In this document: piece by piece, positions 9 to 61,795 of the stretch
Layout of the letters: every line of letters starts with the position of its first letter
How positions within the stretch are numbered: the stretch's first letter is position 1
From: Escherichia coli
Lineage (GTDB): Bacteria > Pseudomonadota > Gammaproteobacteria > Enterobacterales > Enterobacteriaceae
NCBI RefSeq assembly: GCF_048403405.1
Contig: NZ_CP183129.1
DNA length: 64,000 nt
Direction: 5' to 3' (one strand)
The notes under the pieces: model-generated
What the model was told of the DNA's origin: nothing
Database searches by the model: none
Seen by the model: the letters and a program-made list of their open reading frames with translations, nothing else
Made by a program: the position numbers and the translations under genes

Positions 9-833
9 TTATCGCATTATGCCCATGAAGCCATGTACGCCCATATACACACCAACTAAGCCAATCAACAGACTGGAAAAATAGGGGGCGCGTTTAGCGA
101 GAGTGTTAAATCCGCTCCAGCGTTTTGCGACCTGCTGAACGCTGATTGCTGCGCCAACGCCTACGGTGACAAGCGTTAACGCCAGGCCAATGCTGAAACT
201 GACGACCAGTGTTGCGCCCAGTGTCAGGGCTTTCAACTGAATGCATATCAACAGCACGGTAATTGCTGCCGGGCAGGGGATAAGGCCACCGGTTAAGCCA
301 AATAGCAAAATTTGCCAGTTGGTGACCTCTCTACCATCAAAGCGTCGTTTAATGTCATTGGCATGGGCTCGTGCATGGGCATCCTGATACTCGCCATGTT
401 CGTGATGGTGATGATGTCCATGGTCGTGGTGATCTTCGTGATCGTGGTGATGATGCTCATGATCATGCTCGTGCATATTCTCCAGCCAGTTTCGTTCGCC
501 GCGCCAGGTACGCCAGAACATCCAGAACGCGGTGCCAATAATGATCACTGCGGAAATCAACTGGAGCCACGGTTCTGCTGATTGAGCAGTAAAGCGCTTG
601 CTGATCACCATCCCGCCAAAGGCAATCAACCAGACCACTGCGGTATGCGAAATGGTTGCTGCCAGTCCGAGCATCACCGCCTGTTTAATGGTGCCTTTGA
701 TGGCGATGATAAACGCCGCCATCATCGTTTTTGAGTGCCCTGGTTCCAGGCCATGAAGCGCACCAAGTAAGATGGCGCTGGGGATGAAGAACCAGGCGTT
801 TCCTTGCTGAAGAAGAGTTGTAAATTCGGTCAT
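9..833 (-). CDS. rcnA: Ni/Co efflux permease RcnA, 274 aa, with a His-rich cytoplasmic loop
   Basis: ORF track 9..833 (-); sequence recognised as E. coli RcnA including the HEHDHEHHHHDHEDHHDHGHHHHHEH tract; divergent from rcnR. Confidence 0.9.
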   Translation of the reverse strand: MTEFTTLLQQGNAWFFIPSAILLGALHGLEPGHSKTMMAAFIIAIKGTIKQAVMLGLAATISHTAVVWLIAFGGMVISKRFTAQSAEPWLQLISAVIIIGTAFWMFWRTWRGERNWLENMHEHDHEHHHHDHEDHHDHGHHHHHEHGEYQDAHARAHANDIKRRFDGREVTNWQILLFGLTGGLIPCPAAITVLLICIQLKALTLGATLVVSFSIGLALTLVTVGVGAAISVQQVAKRWSGFNTLAKRAPYFSSLLIGLVGVYMGVHGFMGIMR

Positions 834-870
834 GATAATAATTCTTAGTATTAATTCGGCAATCTGATTC

Positions 871-905
871 TACTCCCCCCCAGTACCTGATACTACCCCC
901 CAGTA
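871..905. promoter_or_regulatory. Two RcnR operator-like sites, TACT-C7-AGTA (871..885) and TACT-A-C6-AGTA (891..905), in the rcnA-rcnR divergent promoter region
   Basis: Motifs read directly in the intergenic sequence; RcnR is known to bind TACT-G6-N-AGTA type sites. Confidence 0.6.
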
Positions 906-953
906 GATTAATAGTGCTATGATTTTTCATATTCTTATTAACCAGGTGTTGCC

Positions 954-1226
954 ATGTCTCATACCATCCGTGATAAACAGAAACTGAAAGCGCGTGCCAG
1001 TAAGATTCAGGGCCAGGTCGTGGCGCTCAAGAAAATGCTCGACGAGCCGCACGAATGCGCTGCAGTTTTACAACAGATTGCTGCTATCCGTGGCGCGGTA
1101 AACGGTCTGATGCGGGAAGTGATTAAAGGTCATCTGACGGAACACATCGTTCACCAGGGGGATGAGCTAAAACGTGAAGAAGATCTGGATGTCGTTCTGA
1201 AGGTGCTGGATTCTTATATCAAATAA
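954..1226 (+). CDS. rcnR: Ni/Co-responsive transcriptional repressor RcnR, 90 aa
   Basis: ORF track 954..1226 (+); CsoR/RcnR-family sequence; divergent from rcnA. Confidence 0.9.
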
Positions 1227-1317
1227 TTTATTAACGCGATTGTAAAACTGCGGTTTTTACTCGTTTACAACGCGTGCGCTGGACATTACCATCCTCCTCT
1301 GCGATTTATCATCGCAA

Positions 1318-1448
1318 TCAAACGACTCGGGGTGCCCTTCTGCGTGAAGGCTGAGAAATACCCGTATCACCTGATCTGGATAATGCCAGCGTAGGGAAGT
1401 CACGGACCACCAGGTCATTGCTTCTTCACGTTATGGCAGGAGCAAACT
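1318..1448 (+). promoter_or_regulatory. TPP (thi-box) riboswitch in the thiM leader
   Basis: Sequence ...CGACUCGGGGUGCCCUUCUGCGUGAAGGCUGAGAAAUACCCGUAUCACCUGAUCUGGAUAAUGCCAGCGUAGGGAAGUC... matches the E. coli thiM TPP aptamer as recalled; it ends at the thiM SD and ATG (1449). Confidence 0.85.
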
Positions 1449-2237
1449 ATGCAAGTCGACCTGCTGAGTTCCGCGCAATCTGCGCACGCGTTACATCTTT
1501 TTCACCAACATTCCCCTCTTGTGCACTGCATGACCAACGATGTGGTGCAAACCTTTACTGCCAATACCTTGCTGGCGCTCGGTGCATCCCCAGCGATGGT
1601 TATCGAAACCGAAGAGGCCAGTCAGTTTGCGGCTATCGCCAGTGCGTTGCTGATTAACGTTGGCACGCTGACGCAGCCACGCGCACAGGCGATGCGTGCC
1701 GCCATTGAACAGGCAAAACGCTCTCAAACACCCTGGACGCTTGATCCAGTAGCGGTGGGTGCACTCGATTATCGCCGCCGTTTTTGTCTGGAACTTCTGT
1801 CTCATAAGCCAACCGCCATACGTGGTAATGCTTCGGAAATCATGGCATTAGCTGGCGTTGCTAATGGTGGACGGGGAGTGGATACCACTGACGCCGCAGC
1901 TAATGCGATACCCGCTGCACAAACACTGGCACGGGAAACTGGCGCAATCGTCGTGGTCACTGGCGAGATGGATTATGTTACCGATGGACATCGTATCATT
2001 GGTATTCACGGTGGCGATCCGTTAATGACCAAAGTGGTAGGAACTGGCTGTGCATTATCGGCGGTTGTCGCTGCCTGTTGTGCGCTACCAGGCGATACGC
2101 TGGAAAATATCGCATCTGCCTGTCACTGGATGAAACAAGCCGGAGAACGCGCAGTCGCCAGTAGCGAGGGGCCAGGCAGTTTTGTTCCACATTTCCTTGA
2201 TGCGCTCTGGCAATTGACGCCGGAGGTGCAGGCATGA
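1449..2237 (+). CDS. thiM: Hydroxyethylthiazole kinase, 262 aa
   Basis: ORF track; recognised ThiM sequence; stop overlaps thiD start (ATGA). Confidence 0.9.
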
Positions 2238-3034
2238 AACGAATTAACGCTCTGACGATTGCCGGTACTGATCCGAGTGGTGGTGCGGGGATTCAGGCCG
2301 ATCTTAAAACCTTCTCGGCACTTGGCGCTTATGGTTGCTCAGTGATTACTGCACTGGTGGCGCAAAATACCCGTGGCGTACAGTCGGTGTATCGCATTGA
2401 GCCTGATTTTGTCGCCGCCCAGCTCGATTCGGTGTTCAGCGATGTGCGAATCGACACCACTAAAATCGGTATGTTGGCGGAAACCGATATTGTTGAAGCG
2501 GTGGCAGAAAGGTTGCAACGTTATCAGATCAAAAACGTGGTACTTGATACCGTTATGCTGGCAAAAAGCGGCGACCCGCTGCTTTCACCTTCGGCGGTTG
2601 CTACGCTGCGCAGTCGATTATTGCCACAGGTTTCATTAATAACGCCAAACTTGCCCGAAGCTGCCGCCTTGCTCGACGCGCCACACGCGCGCACCGAACA
2701 GGAAATGCTGGAACAAGGGCGATCGCTGTTGGCGATGGGCTGTGGCGCAGTGCTAATGAAAGGTGGTCATCTGGATGATGAGCAAAGCCCGGACTGGCTG
2801 TTTACCCGCGAGGGTGAACAACGGTTTACCGCACCGCGCATTATGACCAAAAACACCCACGGCACTGGTTGTACACTCTCTGCGGCGTTGGCTGCACTAC
2901 GCCCGCGCCATACAAACTGGGCAGACACCGTCCAGGAGGCAAAAAGCTGGCTTTCATCGGCGTTAGCCCAGGCCGACACGCTGGAAGTTGGTCACGGTAT
3001 TGGTCCGGTTCACCACTTCCACGCGTGGTGGTGA
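2234..3034 (+). CDS. thiD: Hydroxymethylpyrimidine/phosphomethylpyrimidine kinase, 266 aa
   Basis: ORF track; recognised ThiD sequence; translationally coupled to thiM. Confidence 0.9.
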
Positions 3035-3098
3035 GCACCTTACTATAGCTGCTTTGGTTATTGTCAGTATTTGGCGCTGACATTCAGGGATGAAACCA

Positions 3099-3917
3099 AT
3101 GCAGCTGAGAATCATCAGTCGAAAAAAATTCACCGCTTTATTATGCGCTCTTGGGCTAATTTCCATCGTTGCAATTTATCCGCGTCAGACGGTGAATTTT
3201 TTCTACTCGACAGCAATTCAGATTAAAGACTACATCCACTTCTACGGTTATCGCCCGGTTAAATCTTTCGCTATTCGCATTCCTGCCAGTTACACCATTC
3301 ATGGTATTGATGTTTCACGCTGGCAGGAGCGAATCGACTGGCAGCGGGTGGCAAAAATGCGCGACAACGGTATTCTCTTGCAGTTTGCCTTTATCAAGGC
3401 GACGGAAGGCGAAAAGCTGGTGGACCCCTATTTTTCGCGTAACTGGCAACTAAGCCGCGAAAATGGCCTGCTGCGCGGGGCGTATCATTATTTCTCCCCG
3501 TCGGTATCCGCTTCAGTTCAGGCGCGATTATTTCTGCAAACGGTGGATTTTGCCCACGGCGATCTCCCTGCCGTGCTGGACGTAGAAGAACGGGGAAAAT
3601 TATCGGCAAAAGAATTACGCAAGCGGGTAAGTCAGTGGCTAAAAATGGTCGAAAAACGCACGGGAAAAAAGCCAATTATTTACTCAGGAGCCGTTTTTTA
3701 TCACACGAATCTGGCGGGCTATTTTAATGAATATCCGTGGTGGGTGGCTCACTATTATCAACGTCGCCCGGACAATGACGGCATGGCCTGGCGCTTCTGG
3801 CAGCATTCCGACCGTGGACAGGTAGATGGCATTAATGGTCCGGTGGATTTTAATGTGTTTAATGGCACGGTGGAGGAGTTGCAGGCATTCGTTGATGGGA
3901 TTAAAGAAACGCCTTAA
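3099..3917 (+). CDS. yegX: GH25-family lysozyme-like muramidase with N-terminal hydrophobic anchor
   Basis: ORF 3090..3917; matches E. coli YegX as recalled; start placed at the second Met (MQLRII) to give 272 aa, start uncertain. Confidence 0.75.
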   Translation: MQLRIISRKKFTALLCALGLISIVAIYPRQTVNFFYSTAIQIKDYIHFYGYRPVKSFAIRIPASYTIHGIDVSRWQERIDWQRVAKMRDNGILLQFAFIKATEGEKLVDPYFSRNWQLSRENGLLRGAYHYFSPSVSASVQARLFLQTVDFAHGDLPAVLDVEERGKLSAKELRKRVSQWLKMVEKRTGKKPIIYSGAVFYHTNLAGYFNEYPWWVAHYYQRRPDNDGMAWRFWQHSDRGQVDGINGPVDFNVFNGTVEELQAFVDGIKETP

Positions 3918-8185: not shown

Positions 8186-9238
8186 ATGACAGATATTGCG
8201 CAGTTGCTTGGCAAAGACGCCGACAACCTTTTACAGCACCGTTGTATGACTATTCCTTCTGACCAGCTTTATCTCCCCGGACATGACTACGTAGACCGCG
8301 TGATGATTGACAATAATCGCCCGCCAGCGGTGTTACGTAATATGCAGACGTTATACAACACCGGGCGTCTGGCTGGCACAGGATATCTTTCTATTCTGCC
8401 GGTTGACCAGGGCGTTGAGCACTCTGCCGGAGCTTCATTTGCCGCTAACCCGCTCTACTTTGACCCGAAAAACATTGTTGAACTGGCGATCGAAGCGGGC
8501 TGTAACTGTGTGGCGTCAACTTACGGCGTGCTGGCGTCGGTATCGCGGCGTTACGCGCATCGCATTCCATTCCTCGTCAAACTTAATCACAACGAGACGC
8601 TAAGTTACCCGAATACCTACGATCAAACGCTGTATGCCAGCGTGGAGCAGGCCTTCAACATGGGCGCGGTGGCGGTTGGTGCGACTATCTATTTTGGTTC
8701 GGAAGAGTCACGTCGCCAGATTGAAGAAATTTCTGCGGCTTTTGAACGTGCGCACGAGCTGGGCATGGTGACTGTGCTGTGGGCCTATTTGCGTAACTCC
8801 GCCTTTAAGAAAGATGGCGTTGATTACCATGTTTCCGCCGACCTGACTGGTCAGGCGAACCATCTTGCGGCAACCATAGGTGCAGATATCGTCAAACAAA
8901 AAATGGCGGAAAATAACGGCGGCTATAAAGCAATTAATTACGGTTATACCGACGATCGCGTGTACAGCAAGTTAACCAGCGAAAACCCGATTGATCTGGT
9001 GCGTTATCAGTTAGCTAACTGCTATATGGGCCGGGCTGGGTTGATAAACTCCGGCGGTGCTGCAGGCGGTGAAACTGACCTCAGCGATGCAGTGCGTACT
9101 GCGGTTATCAACAAACGCGCTGGCGGAATGGGGCTGATTCTTGGACGTAAGGCGTTCAAGAAATCGATGGCTGACGGCGTGAAACTGATTAACGCCGTGC
9201 AGGACGTTTATCTCGATAGCAAAATTACTATCGCCTGA
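8186..9238 (+). CDS. fbaB: Class I fructose-bisphosphate aldolase, 350 aa
   Basis: ORF 8114..9238; start moved to [10 protein letters not shown] to match the FbaB N-terminus as recalled. Confidence 0.85.
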
Positions 9239-9276
9239 TACGCCTTATACGAACAGCACTACCCCGTATGACGGAA

Positions 9277-9302
9277 AAGGCGTTTACGTCGCATCCGGCA
9301 TA
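9277..9302. repeat. REP-like palindromic element
   Basis: aggcgtttacgtcgcatccggcat resembles the E. coli REP consensus. Confidence 0.5.
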
Positions 9303-9323
9303 AAAACACGCGCACTTTGCTAC

Positions 9324-9352
9324 GGCTTCCCTATCGGGAGGCCGTTTTTTTG
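9324..9352 (+). terminator. Rho-independent terminator downstream of fbaB
   Basis: Imperfect stem cggcttccc/gggaggccg with 4-nt loop followed by T7. Confidence 0.65.
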
Positions 9353-9411
9353 CCTGTCATTCTGATTAATTTTCGAATTGTCGTTTTTGTGATCATTATC
9401 TCGACATTTGA

Positions 9412-11611
<2,200 letters not shown>

Positions 11612-12391: not shown

Positions 12392-13747
12392 ATGTTTTCA
12401 GAAGTCATGCGTTATATTCTCGACCTCGGCCCTACAGTGATGCTGCCGGTTGTCATCATTATTTTTTCTAAAATATTAGGCATGAAGGCAGGCGATTGCT
12501 TTAAAGCGGGTCTGCATATCGGGATTGGCTTTGTTGGCATTGGCCTTGTGATTGGCTTAATGCTGGATTCCATTGGTCCGGCGGCGAAAGCGATGGCGGA
12601 AAATTTCGACCTGAATCTGCATGTGGTCGATGTCGGCTGGCCGGGCTCTTCACCAATGACCTGGGCGTCGCAAATTGCGCTGGTGGCGATTCCGATTGCG
12701 ATTCTGGTTAACGTGGCGATGTTACTGACCCGTATGACGCGGGTGGTAAATGTTGATATCTGGAATATCTGGCATATGACCTTCACCGGCGCGTTGCTGC
12801 ATCTGGCAACCGGTTCATGGATGATAGGGATGGCGGGTGTGGTAATTCACGCGGCGTTTGTTTATAAGCTCGGCGACTGGTTTGCCCGCGATACCCGAAA
12901 TTTCTTTGAGCTGGAAGGCATTGCTATTCCGCACGGTACGTCGGCGTATCTGGGGCCGATTGCGGTGCTGGTCGATGCTATCATTGAGAAAATCCCAGGC
13001 GTTAACCGAATTAAATTTAGTGCCGATGATATTCAGCGCAAGTTTGGCCCATTTGGCGAACCTGTCACCGTGGGTTTTGTGATGGGGCTGATTATCGGCA
13101 TCCTCGCGGGTTACGATGTCAAAGGTGTATTGCAGCTGGCGGTAAAAACGGCAGCAGTTATGCTGTTGATGCCACGGGTGATTAAACCCATCATGGATGG
13201 TTTAACGCCTATCGCTAAGCAGGCCCGTAGTCGTTTACAGGCGAAGTTCGGCGGTCAGGAGTTCCTGATTGGCCTTGATCCGGCGTTGCTGCTGGGGCAT
13301 ACGGCGGTGGTATCGGCAAGCCTGATTTTTATCCCGCTCACCATTTTAATTGCTGTTTGTGTTCCGGGTAATCAGGTACTGCCGTTTGGCGACCTTGCCA
13401 CCATCGGTTTCTTTGTGGCGATGGCGGTCGCCGTGCATCGTGGAAATCTGTTCCGCACCTTAATCTCGGGTGTCATCATTATGAGCATCACCCTGTGGAT
13501 CGCGACGCAAACTATTGGTTTGCACACCCAACTGGCGGCTAACGCTGGGGCGTTAAAAGCCGGAGGCATGGTGGCATCAATGGATCAGGGCGGTTCTCCC
13601 ATTACCTGGTTACTGATTCAGGTTTTCTCCCCGCAAAATATTCCCGGTTTCATTATTATCGGTGCCATTTATCTTACCGGTATTTTCATGACCTGGCGTA
13701 GAGCGCGTGGTTTTATTAAACAAGAGAAAGCCGTTCTCGCAGAATAA
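12392..13747 (+). CDS. gatC: Galactitol PTS EIIC permease, 451 aa
   Basis: ORF track; polytopic membrane protein; operon context. Confidence 0.85.
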   Translation: MFSEVMRYILDLGPTVMLPVVIIIFSKILGMKAGDCFKAGLHIGIGFVGIGLVIGLMLDSIGPAAKAMAENFDLNLHVVDVGWPGSSPMTWASQIALVAIPIAILVNVAMLLTRMTRVVNVDIWNIWHMTFTGALLHLATGSWMIGMAGVVIHAAFVYKLGDWFARDTRNFFELEGIAIPHGTSAYLGPIAVLVDAIIEKIPGVNRIKFSADDIQRKFGPFGEPVTVGFVMGLIIGILAGYDVKGVLQLAVKTAAVMLLMPRVIKPIMDGLTPIAKQARSRLQAKFGGQEFLIGLDPALLLGHTAVVSASLIFIPLTILIAVCVPGNQVLPFGDLATIGFFVAMAVAVHRGNLFRTLISGVIIMSITLWIATQTIGLHTQLAANAGALKAGGMVASMDQGGSPITWLLIQVFSPQNIPGFIIIGAIYLTGIFMTWRRARGFIKQEKAVLAE

Positions 13748-14934: not shown

Positions 14935-15714
14935 ATGACGATGAATTCATTCGAGCGAAGGAATAAGATCATCCAATTAGTGAATGAACAGGGAACCGTG
15001 CTTGTTCAGGATCTGGCGGGAGTATTTGCTGCCTCGGAAGCGACAATCCGTGCCGATTTGCGCTTTCTCGAACAAAAAGGCGTAGTTACGCGCTTTCATG
15101 GCGGTGCGGCGAAAATAATGTCCGGTAATAGTGAAACCGAGACTCAGGAAGTTGGGTTTAAAGAGCGATTTCAGCTCGCCAGTGCGCCAAAAAACAGAAT
15201 AGCGCAGGCGGCAGTCAAAATGATCCACGAAGGGATGACCGTTATTCTCGACAGCGGAAGTACCACAATGCTTATCGCCGAAGGTTTAATGACCGCCAAA
15301 AATATCACGGTGATTACCAACAGTCTCCCGGCGGCGTTTGCCCTTTCCGAAAATAAAGACATTACTCTGGTCGTCTGTGGTGGGACCGTCCGCCATAAAA
15401 CACGCTCGATGCATGGTTCCATTGCCGAGCGTTCATTGCAGGATATTAATGCCGATTTAATGTTTGTCGGTGCTGATGGTATTGATGCGGTTAATGGTAT
15501 TACGACCTTTAATGAAGGTTATTCGATTAGCGGGGCAATGGTCACAGCCGCAAATAAAGTGATTGCCGTTCTCGATTCATCGAAATTTAATCGTCGCGGT
15601 TTTAATCAGGTACTGCCAATCGAAAAAATCGACATTATTATTACCGACGATGCTGTGTCAGAGGTGGATAAACTGGCATTGCAGAAGACACGGGTGAAAT
15701 TAATTACGGTGTAG
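14935..15714 (+). CDS. gatR: DeoR-family repressor of the gat operon; intact here
   Basis: ORF track 259 aa (start may be 14941); N-terminal HTH and C-terminal DeoR sugar-binding domain; no IS interruption. Confidence 0.8.
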   Translation: MTMNSFERRNKIIQLVNEQGTVLVQDLAGVFAASEATIRADLRFLEQKGVVTRFHGGAAKIMSGNSETETQEVGFKERFQLASAPKNRIAQAAVKMIHEGMTVILDSGSTTMLIAEGLMTAKNITVITNSLPAAFALSENKDITLVVCGGTVRHKTRSMHGSIAERSLQDINADLMFVGADGIDAVNGITTFNEGYSISGAMVTAANKVIAVLDSSKFNRRGFNQVLPIEKIDIIITDDAVSEVDKLALQKTRVKLITV

Positions 15715-15726
15715 TATTGTTCTGTA

Positions 15727-15758
15727 TGCCGGATAAGGTTTTTACACCGCATCCGGCA
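15727..15758. repeat. REP-like palindromic element between gatR and yegS
   Basis: tgccggataaggtttttacaccgcatccggca resembles the REP consensus. Confidence 0.5.
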
Positions 15759-15795
15759 TTACGGATTCTCCCTGGTTCAAGAGAGAATAGTTTGA

Positions 15796-16695
15796 TTAAC
15801 GCAATAATGGACAATCTGGTGGTAATCGACAACGCAACGCCGCCGGAAGTATTTCAATATGGAAGTTTTGCCCACTCAACGGTTCGCCATCAAGATTAAA
15901 AGTGATTTCGTGTGGGGCTTGTATATCAAACCACGACGAAGCGCCTTCGATAATATTCGGGTTATCTTCGTCAGATTTTAAGGTTGATACGAGAGCTGGA
16001 AGAATTTCATCGCCGGTAAAAATGCGCAGTTGCAGCAGGCCATCGTTAATTAACGCGTTCGGGCACAATTGCTGACCGCCACCGGCCTGACGCCCGTTAC
16101 CAATACCAATGACCAGGGCGTCACCTTGCCAGTGAAAGTTTTCACCGCGGATCTCACAACGGTCCGGTTGCAGAGTATCCATGCGCATTAAGCCATGAAT
16201 GATGTAAGAGACGCCACCCAGCGCGGCTTTTAATTTTTCCGGCGTTTCTGTGGTAATACGCGTCCCAAATCCGCCTGTCGCCATATTAATAAAACAGGTT
16301 TGTTTGTTGACCTGCGCCATATCTATCGCAATGGCGTCACCGGCAATTGCCAGTTTCAGCGCCTTATCCAGTGCCTCAGGAATCCTTACACTGGTGGCAA
16401 AATCATTGGCGGTTCCTAATGGCAAAATTCCTAGCGCGGGTATGTCATCCCCCTCACACTGAATCAACGCCGTAGAAACTTCATTAATGGTGCCATCGCC
16501 ACCACCGGCAATCACCGTTGCGACGCTCAACTTCCGGGCCTCCTCTACATATCGTGCGGCATCGCCTTTCTCCCAAGTGACCCGCACATGGATCGTCATT
16601 CCTTCCTCACGCAACAGCATAATTGCTTCGCGCAATGGTAAATTGTCAGTACTTTTGCCATTAAGAATCAGTAAGCTGGCGGGAAATTCTGCCAT
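15796..16695 (-). CDS. yegS: Lipid kinase (DAGK-catalytic-domain family), 299 aa
   Basis: ORF track; GGDGT motif; matches YegS as recalled. Confidence 0.85.
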
Positions 16696-17109
16696 GATCG
16701 TATGTGCCTTTATGATTGGTCTGTAGATAGTGTAGAGCAGAAAAGAAAAGGTGGAGTCAGAACAGGATGAAAGTCGGAGGATAAAAAATCAGTTCAAGTA
16801 TGGAGGATTCGGTGGTTACCACCAGGAGCTTGCAATGGGGACAGTGAATGTTAACGGTAGCCATAGGTAAATTTCAAAAAAGAGCATATACCTAATATTC
16901 AACTAAACAGTGGCATCTTCAATATACTATTAAAAATATATTAACCCCCCCATGGGGTTACCCGGAAGGGCCTCCGTGTATGTAATTCCTACTTATGTAG
17001 GAAATGTTGTACAGAACATTTATTATAATCCTATTCAATTATAATAATCATGCCATTATTATATTTAAACACCAGAGCGTGTCGTTGGTATTTAATGGGG
17101 GAAGGTGAG

Positions 17110-17584: not shown

Positions 17585-17611
17585 AAAAAATAAGCCCGTG
17601 TAAGGGAGATT
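17585..17611. other. Phage P2 attB core-like sequence (aaaaaataagcccgtgtaagggagatt) at the cyaR 3' end, unoccupied
   Basis: 27-mer read from sequence; matches the P2 attachment core as I recall it; no prophage genes flank it here. Confidence 0.5.
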
Positions 17612-17671
17612 ACACAGGCTAAGGAGGTGGTTCCTGGTACAGCTAGCATTTTATGGGTTATGTTTTTCAGC
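17585..17671 (-). ncRNA. cyaR: CyaR (RyeE) Hfq-dependent sRNA
   Basis: Reverse complement reads GCUGAAAAACAUAACCCAUAAAAUGCUAGCUGUACCAGGAACCACCUCCUUAGCCUGUGUAAUCUCCCUUACACGGGCUUAUUUUUU, matching E. coli CyaR as recalled. Confidence 0.85.
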
Positions 17672-17755
17672 GAAACGGATGATAACCTTAATAAATGCAG
17701 CTGTATGTGATCGGTTTCTAAGAATTTTCCATCCGGGAAAAATAATCGAAATTAA

Positions 17756-21899: not shown

Positions 21900-23311
21900 T
21901 GCGCGCTCCTTTTTCGCCGCGAAATAGCTACATTTTGATGCGTATCGTTCGGCACTCTGGCAAAGATGAACGCCGGAAGGGCAATGATAAACGCCATGCT
22001 AAGCCAGGTGTACATAAAGACGGTTTGTGTGGTGCCGCTGTCGACGCTGACATGCTGCGAACCAAAAAGTCCCAGCAACAGCCCGGCGATGGTGACGCCG
22101 ATACTCATCGACAATTGCATAATCATCGACAGCAGGCTGTTTCCGCTGCTCGCCAGATTGTCCGGGAGATCTTTCAGCGTCAGGGTGTTCATGGAGGAGA
22201 AACGCGTCGAGTTGACCATCCCTTGTAAAAACAGGACGAACGGCAAAACGTAGTACCAGCCCAGCAGGGCGGTAGTCATAAACAACAGGGTGACCAGCGA
22301 CAGACCCAGCGTGGTCGCCACCAGTACCCGACGATAACCAAAGCGATTCACCACCTGTACCACAATTCGCTTCATCCCCATGCTGCCGAGCACCATCGGG
22401 ATCATCATCAGTCCGGCATGAAACGGTGAGAAGCCAAGGCCAATTTGCAGGAAAACCGGCGTCATAAAGGGCAACATGCCGCTACCGATACGTCCGGCAA
22501 AACTCCCCGCCAGGCCCAGCGAAAAGGTACGAGTACGGAACAGTTTCAGACTGAAAAGAGCGCGGTTGTTATTTCTGGCGTGCAGCAGATAAAGCACCAG
22601 TGCTACCACGCCAACTGCGACCAGGCCAGCAATCGCCAGCGGCGATAAACCTGTACCTTTACTGCCGTCCAGCGCCAGGGTTAATACCGCCATGCCAACC
22701 GCCAGCAATAAAAAGCCGAAGAGATCAAAGCGCCGCGTCTGCATGGTGTAGTTCGGCATTAACATCAGTGTGGCGATCGCACCGATAATCCCCACCGGAA
22801 TGTTGATCAAAAAGATCCAGTGCCAGGAGGCGTACTCCACCAGCAGGCCGCCGAGCGCCGGACCGAGCAGCGGCCCGACCTGACCGGGTAACGTGACAAA
22901 GGTCATCGCCGCCATATATTGCTCGCGCGGTACGATTTTCATCACCGTCAACCTGCCGACCGGCACCATCATCGCACCGCCAACGCCCTGTAACGCGCGT
23001 GCCAGCAACAGTTCGTTCAGCGTGCCGGAAAGCGCGCAAAACAGTGAACCGAGAGTAAACAGCACGATGGCGGTAAAGAAAATATTGCGCACGCCGACTT
23101 TGTCCGCCAGCCAGCCGCTGGCAGGCAACATCACCGCCACGGTCAGCACATAAGAGACAATGACCATGTGCATATGCAACGGACTTTCCCCGAGGCTTTG
23201 CGCCATTGAGGGAAGGGCGGTGTTAACGATGGTGGTGTCCAGCGACTGCATAAAGAAGCCGAAAGCCACAATCCACAATTGCCAGCGGGTGCTGTCGGGA
23301 AGATCTGTCAT
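21896..23311 (-). CDS. mdtD: MFS efflux transporter MdtD, 471 aa
   Basis: ORF track; polytopic MFS protein; operon context. Confidence 0.85.
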
Positions 23312-30989: not shown

Positions 30990-31128
30990 AACGGGAAAGC
31001 CCCTCCCGAGGAAGGGGCCTTAAATAAGGAAAGGGTCATGATGAAGCTACTCATCATCGTGGTGCTCTTAGTGATTAGCTACCCAGCATACTAAGACTAC
31101 CAGGGCGGGGGAAACCCCGCTCTACCCT
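30990..31128 (-). ncRNA. Sib-family antisense sRNA (type I antitoxin), copy 1; ends approximate
   Basis: Minus-strand promoter-like TTGACA-17-TACTTT near 31135..31165 and hairpin gcccct/aggggc plus U-rich tail near 30995..31018; fully overlaps ibs copy 1. Confidence 0.5.
31038..31094 (+). CDS. Ibs-family type I toxin peptide, copy 1 (MMKLLIIVVLLVISYPAY)
   Basis: 18-codon ORF with SD aaggaaagggtc upstream; Ibs-like hydrophobic peptide. Confidence 0.75.
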   Translation: MMKLLIIVVLLVISYPAY

Positions 31129-31317
31129 CACTCCTGAAAGTATGCCTTCACGATAAGATTGTCAATCTGCAGGCTTTGCAGTCTGCGATCCTGCCAGCAA
31201 ATATTCTTTGCGAGACGTTACGCAATAATCACACTGGAAACTATTTTATCCGCAAGTCAGCGATAGACTGCATACAGGGCGAAAGGAGGTAAGCCGACGA
31301 TTTCAGCGGGACGCTGA

Positions 31318-31456
31318 AACGGGAAAGCCCCTCCCGAGGAAGGGGCCTTAAATAAGGAAAGGGTCATGATGAAGATACTCATCATCGTGGTGCTCTTAGT
31401 GATTAGCTACCCAGCATACTAAGACTACCAGGGCGGGGGAAACCCCGCTCTACCCT
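31318..31456 (-). ncRNA. Sib-family antisense sRNA, copy 2; ends approximate
   Basis: Same elements at equivalent positions in repeat unit 2. Confidence 0.5.
31366..31422 (+). CDS. Ibs-family type I toxin peptide, copy 2 (MMKILIIVVLLVISYPAY)
   Basis: Same position within repeat unit 2. Confidence 0.75.
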   Translation: MMKILIIVVLLVISYPAY

Positions 31457-31646
31457 CACTCCTGAAAGTATGCCTTCACGATAAGATTGTCAATCCGCAG
31501 GCTTTGCAGTCTGCGATCCTGCCAGCAAATATTCTTTGCGAGTCGTTACGCAATAATCACAGAGGAAACTATTTTGGTCACGCGTTAGCGATAGACTGCA
31601 TTCAGGGCGAAAGGAGGTAAGCCGACGATTTCAGCGGGACGCTGAA

Positions 31647-31790
31647 ACGGGAAACCCTCTCCCGGAGAAGAGGGCTTTTAATAAGGAAAGGGTTATGATG
31701 AAGCACGTCATCATACTGGAGATACTCTTAGTGATTAGCTTCCAGGCTTACTAAGAACACCAGGGGGAGGGAGAAACCTCTCCCTAACCC
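31647..31790 (-). ncRNA. Sib-family antisense sRNA, copy 3; ends approximate
   Basis: Equivalent position in unit 3; minus-strand TTGACA-17-TAATTT promoter-like element near 31800..31830. Confidence 0.45.
31695..31754 (+). CDS. Ibs-family type I toxin peptide, copy 3 (MMKHVIILEILLVISFQAY), IbsA-like but with an internal Glu
   Basis: 19-codon ORF in repeat unit 3; GAG codon read directly from sequence. Confidence 0.7.
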   Translation: MMKHVIILEILLVISFQAY

Positions 31791-31974
31791 TCACTCCTGA
31801 AATTATGTCACTCCGCCCTTAGTGTCAATCGACGGCTCTCCGTTCTTGCGAGGCGAATAGCAAAATTTTCTGCGCCGCCGGGCCTAATTCTGAAAGTTTC
31901 TTCGTTTGCTCTTATTTCATTATTGCAATCGGTATGATACCGGGCCTCAATAATTCTCTAAGAAAGGATTTCTT

Positions 31975-46876: not shown

Positions 46877-47344
46877 AGTAAGTACAAAACCTATTCGTTG
46901 TATGACAAATGTCACAATTCGATCATGGATAAATCGGGGCAAAAATGCAATGTTGCAGCACTATTTATCTCATATTATTTGAGGGTAATAACCTCACATT
47001 ACCCCTGAATTAAAAGTGGTAATAATAAAACATTATTTAAGAAATATCGCATGTGGAGACACTATATTAAATATTGTCAACCTAAAGAAACTCCTAAAAA
47101 CCATATTGAATGACACTTAATATAATTCTTAAAAATAGCCAATTGCCGAATTGTTACCTTGCCTGCTATTCCGTTAGCTGTAACACTTCCTCCTGCATTA
47201 TTGGAGAGCCAATATTCAATTACCATAATGTCACCTTATATTCGGAAGTTAATTTCCGCAATAACCCTTTCTCATCAACGACTGTATGTTGAGAGGGTTT
47301 TAAAAATTAAGCTAAATCAGTGTATTGGTAGCTAAAAAGCCAGG

Positions 47345-47356
47345 GGCGGTAGCGTG
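47345..47356 (+). promoter_or_regulatory. ops element (GGCGGTAGCGTG) within a JUMPStart-like leader upstream of wza
   Basis: Exact ops 12-mer read from sequence about 180 bp upstream of the wza ATG; RfaH-dependent antitermination site in polysaccharide operons. Confidence 0.7.
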
Positions 47357-61695: not shown

Positions 61696-61795
61696 CCGTT
61701 GAATAATCAACCGGATTAATTCTCCGGTAAATAACGAAAAAACAAAATTGGCCGTTTCGGTCAGGGCCAACTATTGCCTGAAAAAGGGTAACGAC

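Follow-up and report, generated by a model that had tools for sequence, protein, structure and literature searches.

The TPP riboswitch ahead of thiMD in an Escherichia coli chromosome

The stretch of DNA analyzed here (the window, 64,000 nucleotides in length) is part of an E. coli chromosome. The locus under study comprises rcnA (9..833, minus strand), rcnR (954..1226, plus strand), thiM (1449..2237, plus strand), thiD (2234..3034, plus strand), and yegX (3090..3917). The thiM gene, whose start codon occupies positions 1449..1451, codes for hydroxyethylthiazole kinase (TIGR00694, 334 bits relative to a cutoff of 256), and thiD codes for hydroxymethylpyrimidine/phosphomethylpyrimidine kinase (TIGR00097, 362 bits relative to a cutoff of 205). 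These two genes overlap by 4 nucleotides (ATGA at 2234..2237), as expected for a translationally coupled operon, thiMD. The 222-nucleotide intergenic region between rcnR and thiM is accounted for by the riboswitch described below. Most E. coli genomes are 95-99% identical to the window over the 234 nucleotides around this leader, and strain 7/2 is 100% identical over the same bases. Of 5,426 complete E. coli genomes, 5,424 have the leader, and an uninterrupted stretch of at least 80% of its length is found in 4,727 of them. On the other side of rcnR, the divergent rcnA-rcnR promoter region contains two near-identical inverted-repeat boxes (TACTCCCCCCCAGTA and TACTACCCCCCAGTA, at 871..885 and 891..905), which resemble what we take to be the known RcnR operator sites (TACT-G6-N-AGTA).

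A candidate promoter for thiM lies at 1264..1292 on the plus strand, with a -35 hexamer (TTTACA, 1264..1269), a 17-nucleotide spacer, and a -10 hexamer (TACCAT, 1287..1292). This is the sole plus-strand sigma-70-like site in 830..1600. A diverged copy of the leader, found on the mobile element of strain TC24 that is discussed below, keeps both hexamers (TTTACA and TACTAT) while its spacer differs. The transcript start can be placed by using published mutants of this leader, in which a ribosome binding site (RBS) mutant is named G142C and a start-codon mutant is named U152A (Bastet et al. 2017, PMC5499598). Because the U of the AUG start codon is at 1450, the numbering of U152A puts the +1 nucleotide (plus strand) at 1299, which is 7 nucleotides past the -10 hexamer, and makes G142 the Shine-Dalgarno (SD) G at 1440. 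Positions 1300..1316 (plus strand) form a 5'-terminal hairpin of 6 base pairs (UGCGAU-UUAUC-AUCGCA) that is present in all folds, constrained or not. The hairpin is kept in Escherichia-type leaders only, and its role is possibly in mRNA stability. A match to Ms_IGR-8 at 1223..1257 (15.6 bits relative to a gathering score of 44, E value of 0.47) was taken as a chance hit.

An Rfam 15 covariance-model scan of the whole 64-kb window returned a single TPP match, which is to RF00059 at 1318..1414 on the plus strand (71.8 bits relative to a gathering score of 54.3, E value of 3.6e-12). The match spans the full model (1-105) and is not truncated. A local covariance scan repeated these coordinates and provided a residue-level alignment, in which the J3/2 sequence CUGAGA (1351..1356) and the pyrophosphate-sensor arm formed by P4 and P5 (ACCUGAUCUGGAUAAUGCCAGCG, 1369..1391) correspond to the model consensus. 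Residues of CUGAGA and of the P4/P5 arm contact TPP in the solved structures. Likewise, RefSeq carries a feature named “TPP riboswitch” at the identical place, the rcnR-thiM gap, in a 100%-identical E. coli genome. Furthermore, the 77 nucleotides at 1324..1400 are identical to a published 80-nucleotide “E. coli TPP riboswitch” RNA, which differs in its engineered ends only. The published RNA was used for ITC of TPP binding (PMC4005666), and we infer TPP binding by 1324..1400 because its sequence is identical to that construct.

An earlier note on this DNA had proposed a TPP riboswitch ahead of thiMD at 1318-1448, and had named an Rfam scan as the check and the lack of a significant hit as grounds for rejection. 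The scan yielded a significant match above the curated threshold. Given this match, the thiM and thiD genes downstream, the RefSeq label, and the identity over 77 nucleotides, the region 1318..1448 is almost certainly the TPP riboswitch of E. coli thiM, which forms the 5' leader of the mRNA for thiMD. The feature is this riboswitch itself, beyond mere membership in the RF00059 family. For the RNA encoded in the window, we observe that it is present and where it lies, the family to which it belongs, the conservation of its fold, and its alternative pairings. As for its extent, the proposed start coincides exactly with the start of the Rfam match, but the regulatory unit begins earlier and ends later than the proposed interval. 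Position 1448 immediately precedes the thiM ATG (1449), and thus 1318..1448 encompasses the aptamer (1318..1414) and the expression platform (1403..1448).

The earlier description of this feature as a well-known cis-regulatory RNA agrees with its RefSeq annotation and with the 77 nucleotides that it shares with the published RNA. Indeed, the thiM TPP riboswitch at this location is already known and ordinary, and it is among the best-characterized riboswitches. It shares with the E. coli K-12 thiM riboswitch its species, its locus (rcnR - leader - thiM - thiD - yegX), helices P1 through P5, and an SD-sequestering platform, and the published mutant numbering maps exactly. Nothing is functionally different from the known E. 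coli riboswitch, and the leader differs by a few bases from those of many E. coli genomes. We take PDB entries 2GDI and 2HOJ to be solved aptamer structures of this same riboswitch. Here, the finding validates the scan as a positive control, and it places the published elements (promoter, +1, aptamer helices, anti-SD, SD, and Rho target) precisely in window coordinates.

The aptamer (1318..1414, plus strand) has its helical core at 1324..1401. The core consists of P1 (1324-1327/1398-1401), P2 (1328-1331,1333/1358,1361-1364), P3 (1334-1336,1338-1340/1346-1351), J3/2 (CUGAGA, 1351-1356), P4 (1370-1373/1392-1395), and P5 (1376-1379/1386-1389), all on the plus strand. For P3, we rejected the register given by Rfam, in which C1337 and A1348 are unpaired and just 80% of P3 cells pair. 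With C1337 bulged, 99.6% of the P3 cells pair among 39 thiM leaders, and the change from UUC/GAA to CAU/AUG constitutes three compensatory pairs. The bulged register was independently recovered by RNAalifold. Over all aptamer helices, 98.6% of cells pair in these 39 leaders.

Additional representatives were obtained by using the 3' half of the aptamer as a search pattern, which retrieved 120 loci from a species-representative genome collection. Approximately 60 of these loci have a thiM ortholog directly downstream, and others precede thiD. The same short-P3 aptamer type is located directly before thiD, without an intervening thiM, in Providencia, Proteus, Xenorhabdus, and Photorhabdus (L006, L027, L032, L046, L057, and others). 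Covariation within the aptamers of Enterobacteriaceae only is uninformative, and because most pairs never vary in this family, the test was widened to 119 sequences from diverse phyla. Among these aptamers, 94.7% of cells pair compared to 34-55% with slid partners, although the conservation of P4 and P5 partly reflects sequence selection because the search pattern fixed the aptamer 3' half. There are 159 compensatory cells compared to 35 in shuffles, and none of 500 shuffles reached as high a value. Double changes are found at 8 pairs. The covarying pairs are in P1, P2, and the base of P3, which are helices outside the search pattern, and at a Y/R position in P5.

We set aside the unconstrained minimum free energy (MFE) fold as a test, since the RNA is bistable and ligand-stabilized, and used constrained two-state folding. 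In the unconstrained MFE fold of 1300..1470, the aptamer is absent and stability is not above that of shuffled sequences (z = -1.24). The missing aptamer is expected, because the bound state is stabilized by ligand and by tertiary contacts that are outside the energy model. When RNAalifold was given the 39 thiM leaders and no structure, it predicted the aptamer, an SD-sequestering stem in which GG-AGGAG is the partner of CUUC-UUC, and a further small hairpin containing the G of the start codon.

Three plus-strand segments of the expression platform are involved in the alternative pairings. The first is the anti-anti-SD sequence GGGAAG (1394..1399), which is part of the 3' strands of P4 and P1 and is predicted to pair with the anti-SD strand in the absence of ligand. 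The second is the anti-SD strand itself (UUGCUUCUUCA, 1418..1428), and the third is the SD sequence AGGAG (1438..1442), read from the sequence 6 nucleotides before the start codon. In the unconstrained fold, 1394-1399 pairs with 1421-1426 (CUUCUU) and the SD is largely open. Enforcing the aptamer pairs served as a proxy for the TPP-bound state, and under this constraint the anti-SD strand pairs with 1434..1445. The modeled probability that the SD is unpaired decreases from 0.32 in the free RNA to 0.007 with the aptamer enforced. In the absence of ligand, the aptamer-enforced state is modeled as approximately 12 kcal/mol less stable than the ON state, a difference of the order that ligand binding and tertiary contacts would be expected to provide.

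Both sets of platform helices are preserved in the 39 leaders. Helices of the OFF state are 80.6% kept and those of the ON state are 80.2% kept, compared to 27-56% for slid controls. The pairs between 1394-1399 and 1421-1426 are kept in 36-39 of the 39 leaders, the CUUCUUC of the anti-SD strand is nearly invariant, and the GGAG of the SD is invariant. Support for the expression-platform helices consists mostly of conservation and one-sided changes rather than compensation, because the SD and anti-SD strands are almost invariant within Enterobacteriaceae. The OFF-state pairing also reaches into thiM codons 1-6, to approximately position 1464. In the aptamer-enforced fold, 1411-1416 pairs with 1458-1463 (80% kept across the leaders), and RNAalifold predicts a GCA/UGC pairing between 1451-1453 and 1462-1464. 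The coding start of thiM at 1451..1464 thus appears to be constrained by RNA structure in these models. Conservation of the first thiM codons (GCAACCUGACCUGC, 1451..1464) across genera extends to their nucleotide sequence.

No intrinsic terminator or U-tract hairpin is present in 830..1600, which fits translational control instead of attenuation. The leader therefore exhibits the features of the SD-sequestering class, namely mutually exclusive pairings in constrained folding and no leader terminator. In published experiments on the thiM leader, it was reported that TPP binding leads to a stem that sequesters the RBS and AUG, and that TPP addition lowers the amounts of thiM and thiD mRNA (PMC5499598). 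In the same study, Rho termination was found to be a consequence of translation repression that requires thiM codons 20-34 and not the leader (PMC5499598). The Rho-required codons correspond to 1506..1550 of the window (plus strand; PMC5499598), and the published termination sites 231, 237, and 262 map from the numbering of that study (PMC5499598) to 1529, 1535, and 1560 (plus strand). For the RNA of the window, TPP binding, translational repression, and Rho dependence would follow from this literature on the same sequence.

These findings can be arranged in a proposed mechanism. Transcription would begin near 1299, and 1324..1401 would fold as the TPP aptamer, a three-way junction with a pyrimidine-sensing arm (P2/P3 and J3/2) and a pyrophosphate-sensing arm (P4/P5). 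When TPP is low, GGGAAG (1394..1399) would pair with CUUCUU (1421..1426), leaving the SD at 1438..1442 free so that thiM could be translated, and translation of thiD would be coupled to that of thiM via the ATGA overlap. When TPP is bound, P1 and P4 would be locked, and the released anti-SD strand (1418..1428) would pair with 1434..1445 to sequester the SD. Extra pairing in the OFF state would form around the AUG, between 1411-1416 and 1458-1463 and between 1451-1453 and 1462-1464. Translation initiation would be blocked by SD sequestration. As a secondary effect, the untranslated RNA would expose a C-rich Rho target within thiM codons 20-34, where Rho would terminate transcription and cause the whole thiMD mRNA to fall.

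An alternative is that the riboswitch acts mainly by direct transcription control, through a leader intrinsic terminator or a ligand-exposed Rho site, rather than by SD sequestration. The decrease in thiMD mRNA on TPP addition and the involvement of Rho (PMC5499598) are in its favor, as is a C-rich, G-poor stretch at 1499..1523 (9 C, 2 G). However, there is no U-tract terminator hairpin anywhere in 830..1600, the termination by Rho follows repression of translation and depends on codons 20-34 instead of the leader (PMC5499598), and the conserved SD:anti-SD stem is predicted without structural input. We therefore consider direct transcription control to be improbable, and control of translation by SD sequestration remains the preferred reading.

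Comparisons with other TPP riboswitches are in line with this assignment. The E. coli thiC and thiB (tbpA) riboswitches have the same aptamer class and ligand, and two reports likewise describe translational control together with mRNA-level effects for them (PMC5234074, PMC11487190). They differ from the thiM riboswitch in the operons they control, in their P1 and P3 sequences, and in their expression platforms. In our alignment, thiC-type leaders have the P1 sequence CAAC/UUUG and long P3 inserts, and the Rfam scan of the 64-kb window revealed no riboswitch of the thiC or thiB type. Bacillus-type TPP riboswitches share the aptamer fold and ligand with the thiM leader. Unlike those riboswitches, which act via terminator/antiterminator hairpins, the thiM leader has no terminator-like site and its platform sequesters the SD.

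The suggestion that this region encodes a small minus-strand protein, and that the RNA match is incidental, derives from a 53-aa open reading frame (ORF) with an ATG start at 1257..1418 in the mechanical ORF list, but it is very improbable given that 13 of 39 orthologous leaders have in-frame stops, just 15 of 39 have the start codon, indels shift the frame, codon 3 is a stop in a close Escherichia relative, and the region is conserved in the manner of paired RNA helices, with compensatory changes. On the plus strand, a TTG-initiated ORF at 1418..1657 overlaps thiM out of frame.

Approximately 700 E. coli genomes carry the thiM leader only in pieces. Four cases were examined, among them TC24, PS10-3, and O157 Al Ain. 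Junction alignments and core searches indicate that 1354..1396 (no strand assigned) corresponds to an unoccupied attB site, used by integrase-bearing elements in other genomes. The crossover ranges are 1354..1367 for the O157 Al Ain type, 1369..1394 for the TC24 type, and between approximately 1345 and 1396 for the PS10-3 type. By sequence comparison, the same core is found at both junctions of the elements, an integrase gene adjoins the left junction, and the site is empty elsewhere. The integrase genes are at 561..1916 in the TC24 locus (L004), 15683..16990 in the PS10-3 locus (L126), and 9361..10581 in the O157 Al Ain locus (L005). The window itself has the empty, uninterrupted site with a single att core.

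In TC24, a 13.3-kb element lies between two riboswitch copies, with junctions at 432..472 and 13801..13841 of L004. This element has a gene for a 451-aa tyrosine integrase at its left end and also carries a major capsid gene. At the left junction, the host promoter and the aptamer up to GCGUAG are followed by element sequence and then by the int gene, and this copy is below the Rfam threshold. At its right end, the element contributes its own promoter (TTTACA...TACTAT) and a diverged 5' half of the aptamer, producing a full riboswitch before thiM (73.6 bits). PS10-3 has a 7.7-kb island with its own promoter and 5' aptamer half, with junctions at 15521..15616 and 23253..23349 of L126. The left and right riboswitch copies score 61.3 bits and 72.3 bits, respectively, and the PS10-3 integrase is 71% identical in protein sequence to that of TC24. 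In both TC24 and PS10-3, the integrase gene is left immediately downstream of the host promoter and a truncated aptamer.

The O157 Al Ain locus has a right-end remnant of a PS10-3-type island followed by a 16-kb cf-PICI-like element. The genes of this element include those for an integrase, DUF927, SSB, PerC, capsid, protease, portal, connectors, HNH, TerS, and TerL, and it has no tail genes. The integrase exhibits no significant similarity to the TC24 integrase (best BLASTP E value of 0.13), and the core of this element, AGAAATACCCGUAU / AGAAATACCCGTAT (1354..1367), is shorter than and distinct from the other cores. Its junctions are at 9124..9172 and 25238..25278 of L005. There is no TPP match above threshold at the O157 Al Ain locus, where the element splits the aptamer and does not rebuild it, and so thiM there has lost its promoter and the 5' half of the riboswitch. 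A direct repeat of approximately 70 bp is located near both ends of this element (about 9260..9330 and 25105..25175 of L005).

Of the 5,426 complete E. coli genomes, 469 (O157:H7 strains among them) have the island-type promoter and 5' leader (CTGGCACAAAATATAGAGATTCAACC) ahead of the riboswitch. Examples are at 23090..23290 of L126 and 9000..9172 of L005. In about 9% of complete E. coli genomes, we consider the promoter and 5' leader before thiM to be element-derived. Similar upstream motifs precede the thiM riboswitches of other Enterobacteriaceae (e.g., L072 and L095). These motifs could mean that the elements acquired their leader from an earlier host, or that species like those represented by L072 and L095 also carry remnants. 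In Cedecea sulfonylureivorans, a gene at 12399..13751 of L058 codes for an integrase with 85% protein identity to that of TC24 and is located approximately 12 kb upstream of a riboswitch-thiM pair. The proximity of this TC24-like integrase to a riboswitch and thiM indicates that use of the site extends beyond Escherichia.

The existence of split or truncated copies in some E. coli genomes raises the question of whether the copy in the window could have decayed to a non-functional remnant without any regulatory effect on thiMD in this strain. The left-junction copy of TC24 does not reach the gathering score, and no copy in O157 Al Ain is above threshold. In the window, however, the riboswitch is full length (model 1-105), includes the 77 nucleotides identical to the RNA shown to bind TPP, and is contiguous with the promoter, anti-SD, SD, and thiM. 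Moreover, the att core occurs once in the window and no insertion is present at it. A decayed remnant is thus highly unlikely, and an intact thiM riboswitch remains the preferred reading.

These comparisons raise the possibility, which we put forward tentatively and regard as somewhat less than even in likelihood, that the aptamer DNA (approximately 1354..1396) is an attachment hot-spot for at least three kinds of elements, two of which carry a surrogate promoter and 5' half that rebuild TPP control. The three kinds are the 13-kb capsid-encoding element, the 7.7-kb island, and the 16-kb cf-PICI-like satellite. If true, this site would be the riboswitch counterpart of the att sites in tRNA genes, and expression of the integrase could come under the control of the host thiM promoter, perhaps also responding to thiamine status. 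A cis-regulatory RNA would then be a usable target for integration, and host regulation would be preserved by a replacement promoter and half-aptamer brought in by the mobile elements themselves. This side observation may matter more than the riboswitch finding.

Like tRNA and tmRNA att sites, the thiM site is an attB that encodes a structured RNA, and an element copy of the displaced part rebuilds the target. However, the thiM target is a cis-regulatory mRNA leader instead of an RNA gene, what is restored is the 5' half plus promoter instead of the 3' end, and one element type (O157 Al Ain) leaves the target unrebuilt. None of 50,697 phage records was found to carry the leader segment as an attP. 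Also, we found no description that links thiM or its riboswitch to an attB, integrase, or PICI in the searchable literature, a body of text that does not extend to the attB tables of the PICI papers. The cf-PICI paper mentions six attB sites.

Several other RNAs in the window were identified by Rfam. Three tandem copies of SIB RNA (RF00113, the antitoxin of Ibs toxins) are located at 31023..31165, 31351..31493, and 31680..31828 on the minus strand, with scores of 141-146 bits. We presume that K-12 has two SIB copies (sibA and sibB) at the corresponding locus, and thus this strain may carry one extra repeat relative to K-12. Also above the Rfam thresholds are the CyaR sRNA (17588..17673, minus strand, 100.7 bits), a JUMPstart element (47318..47356, plus strand, 57.3 bits), which is expected ahead of a polysaccharide gene cluster, and an algC RNA (61742..61791, plus strand, 78.2 bits).
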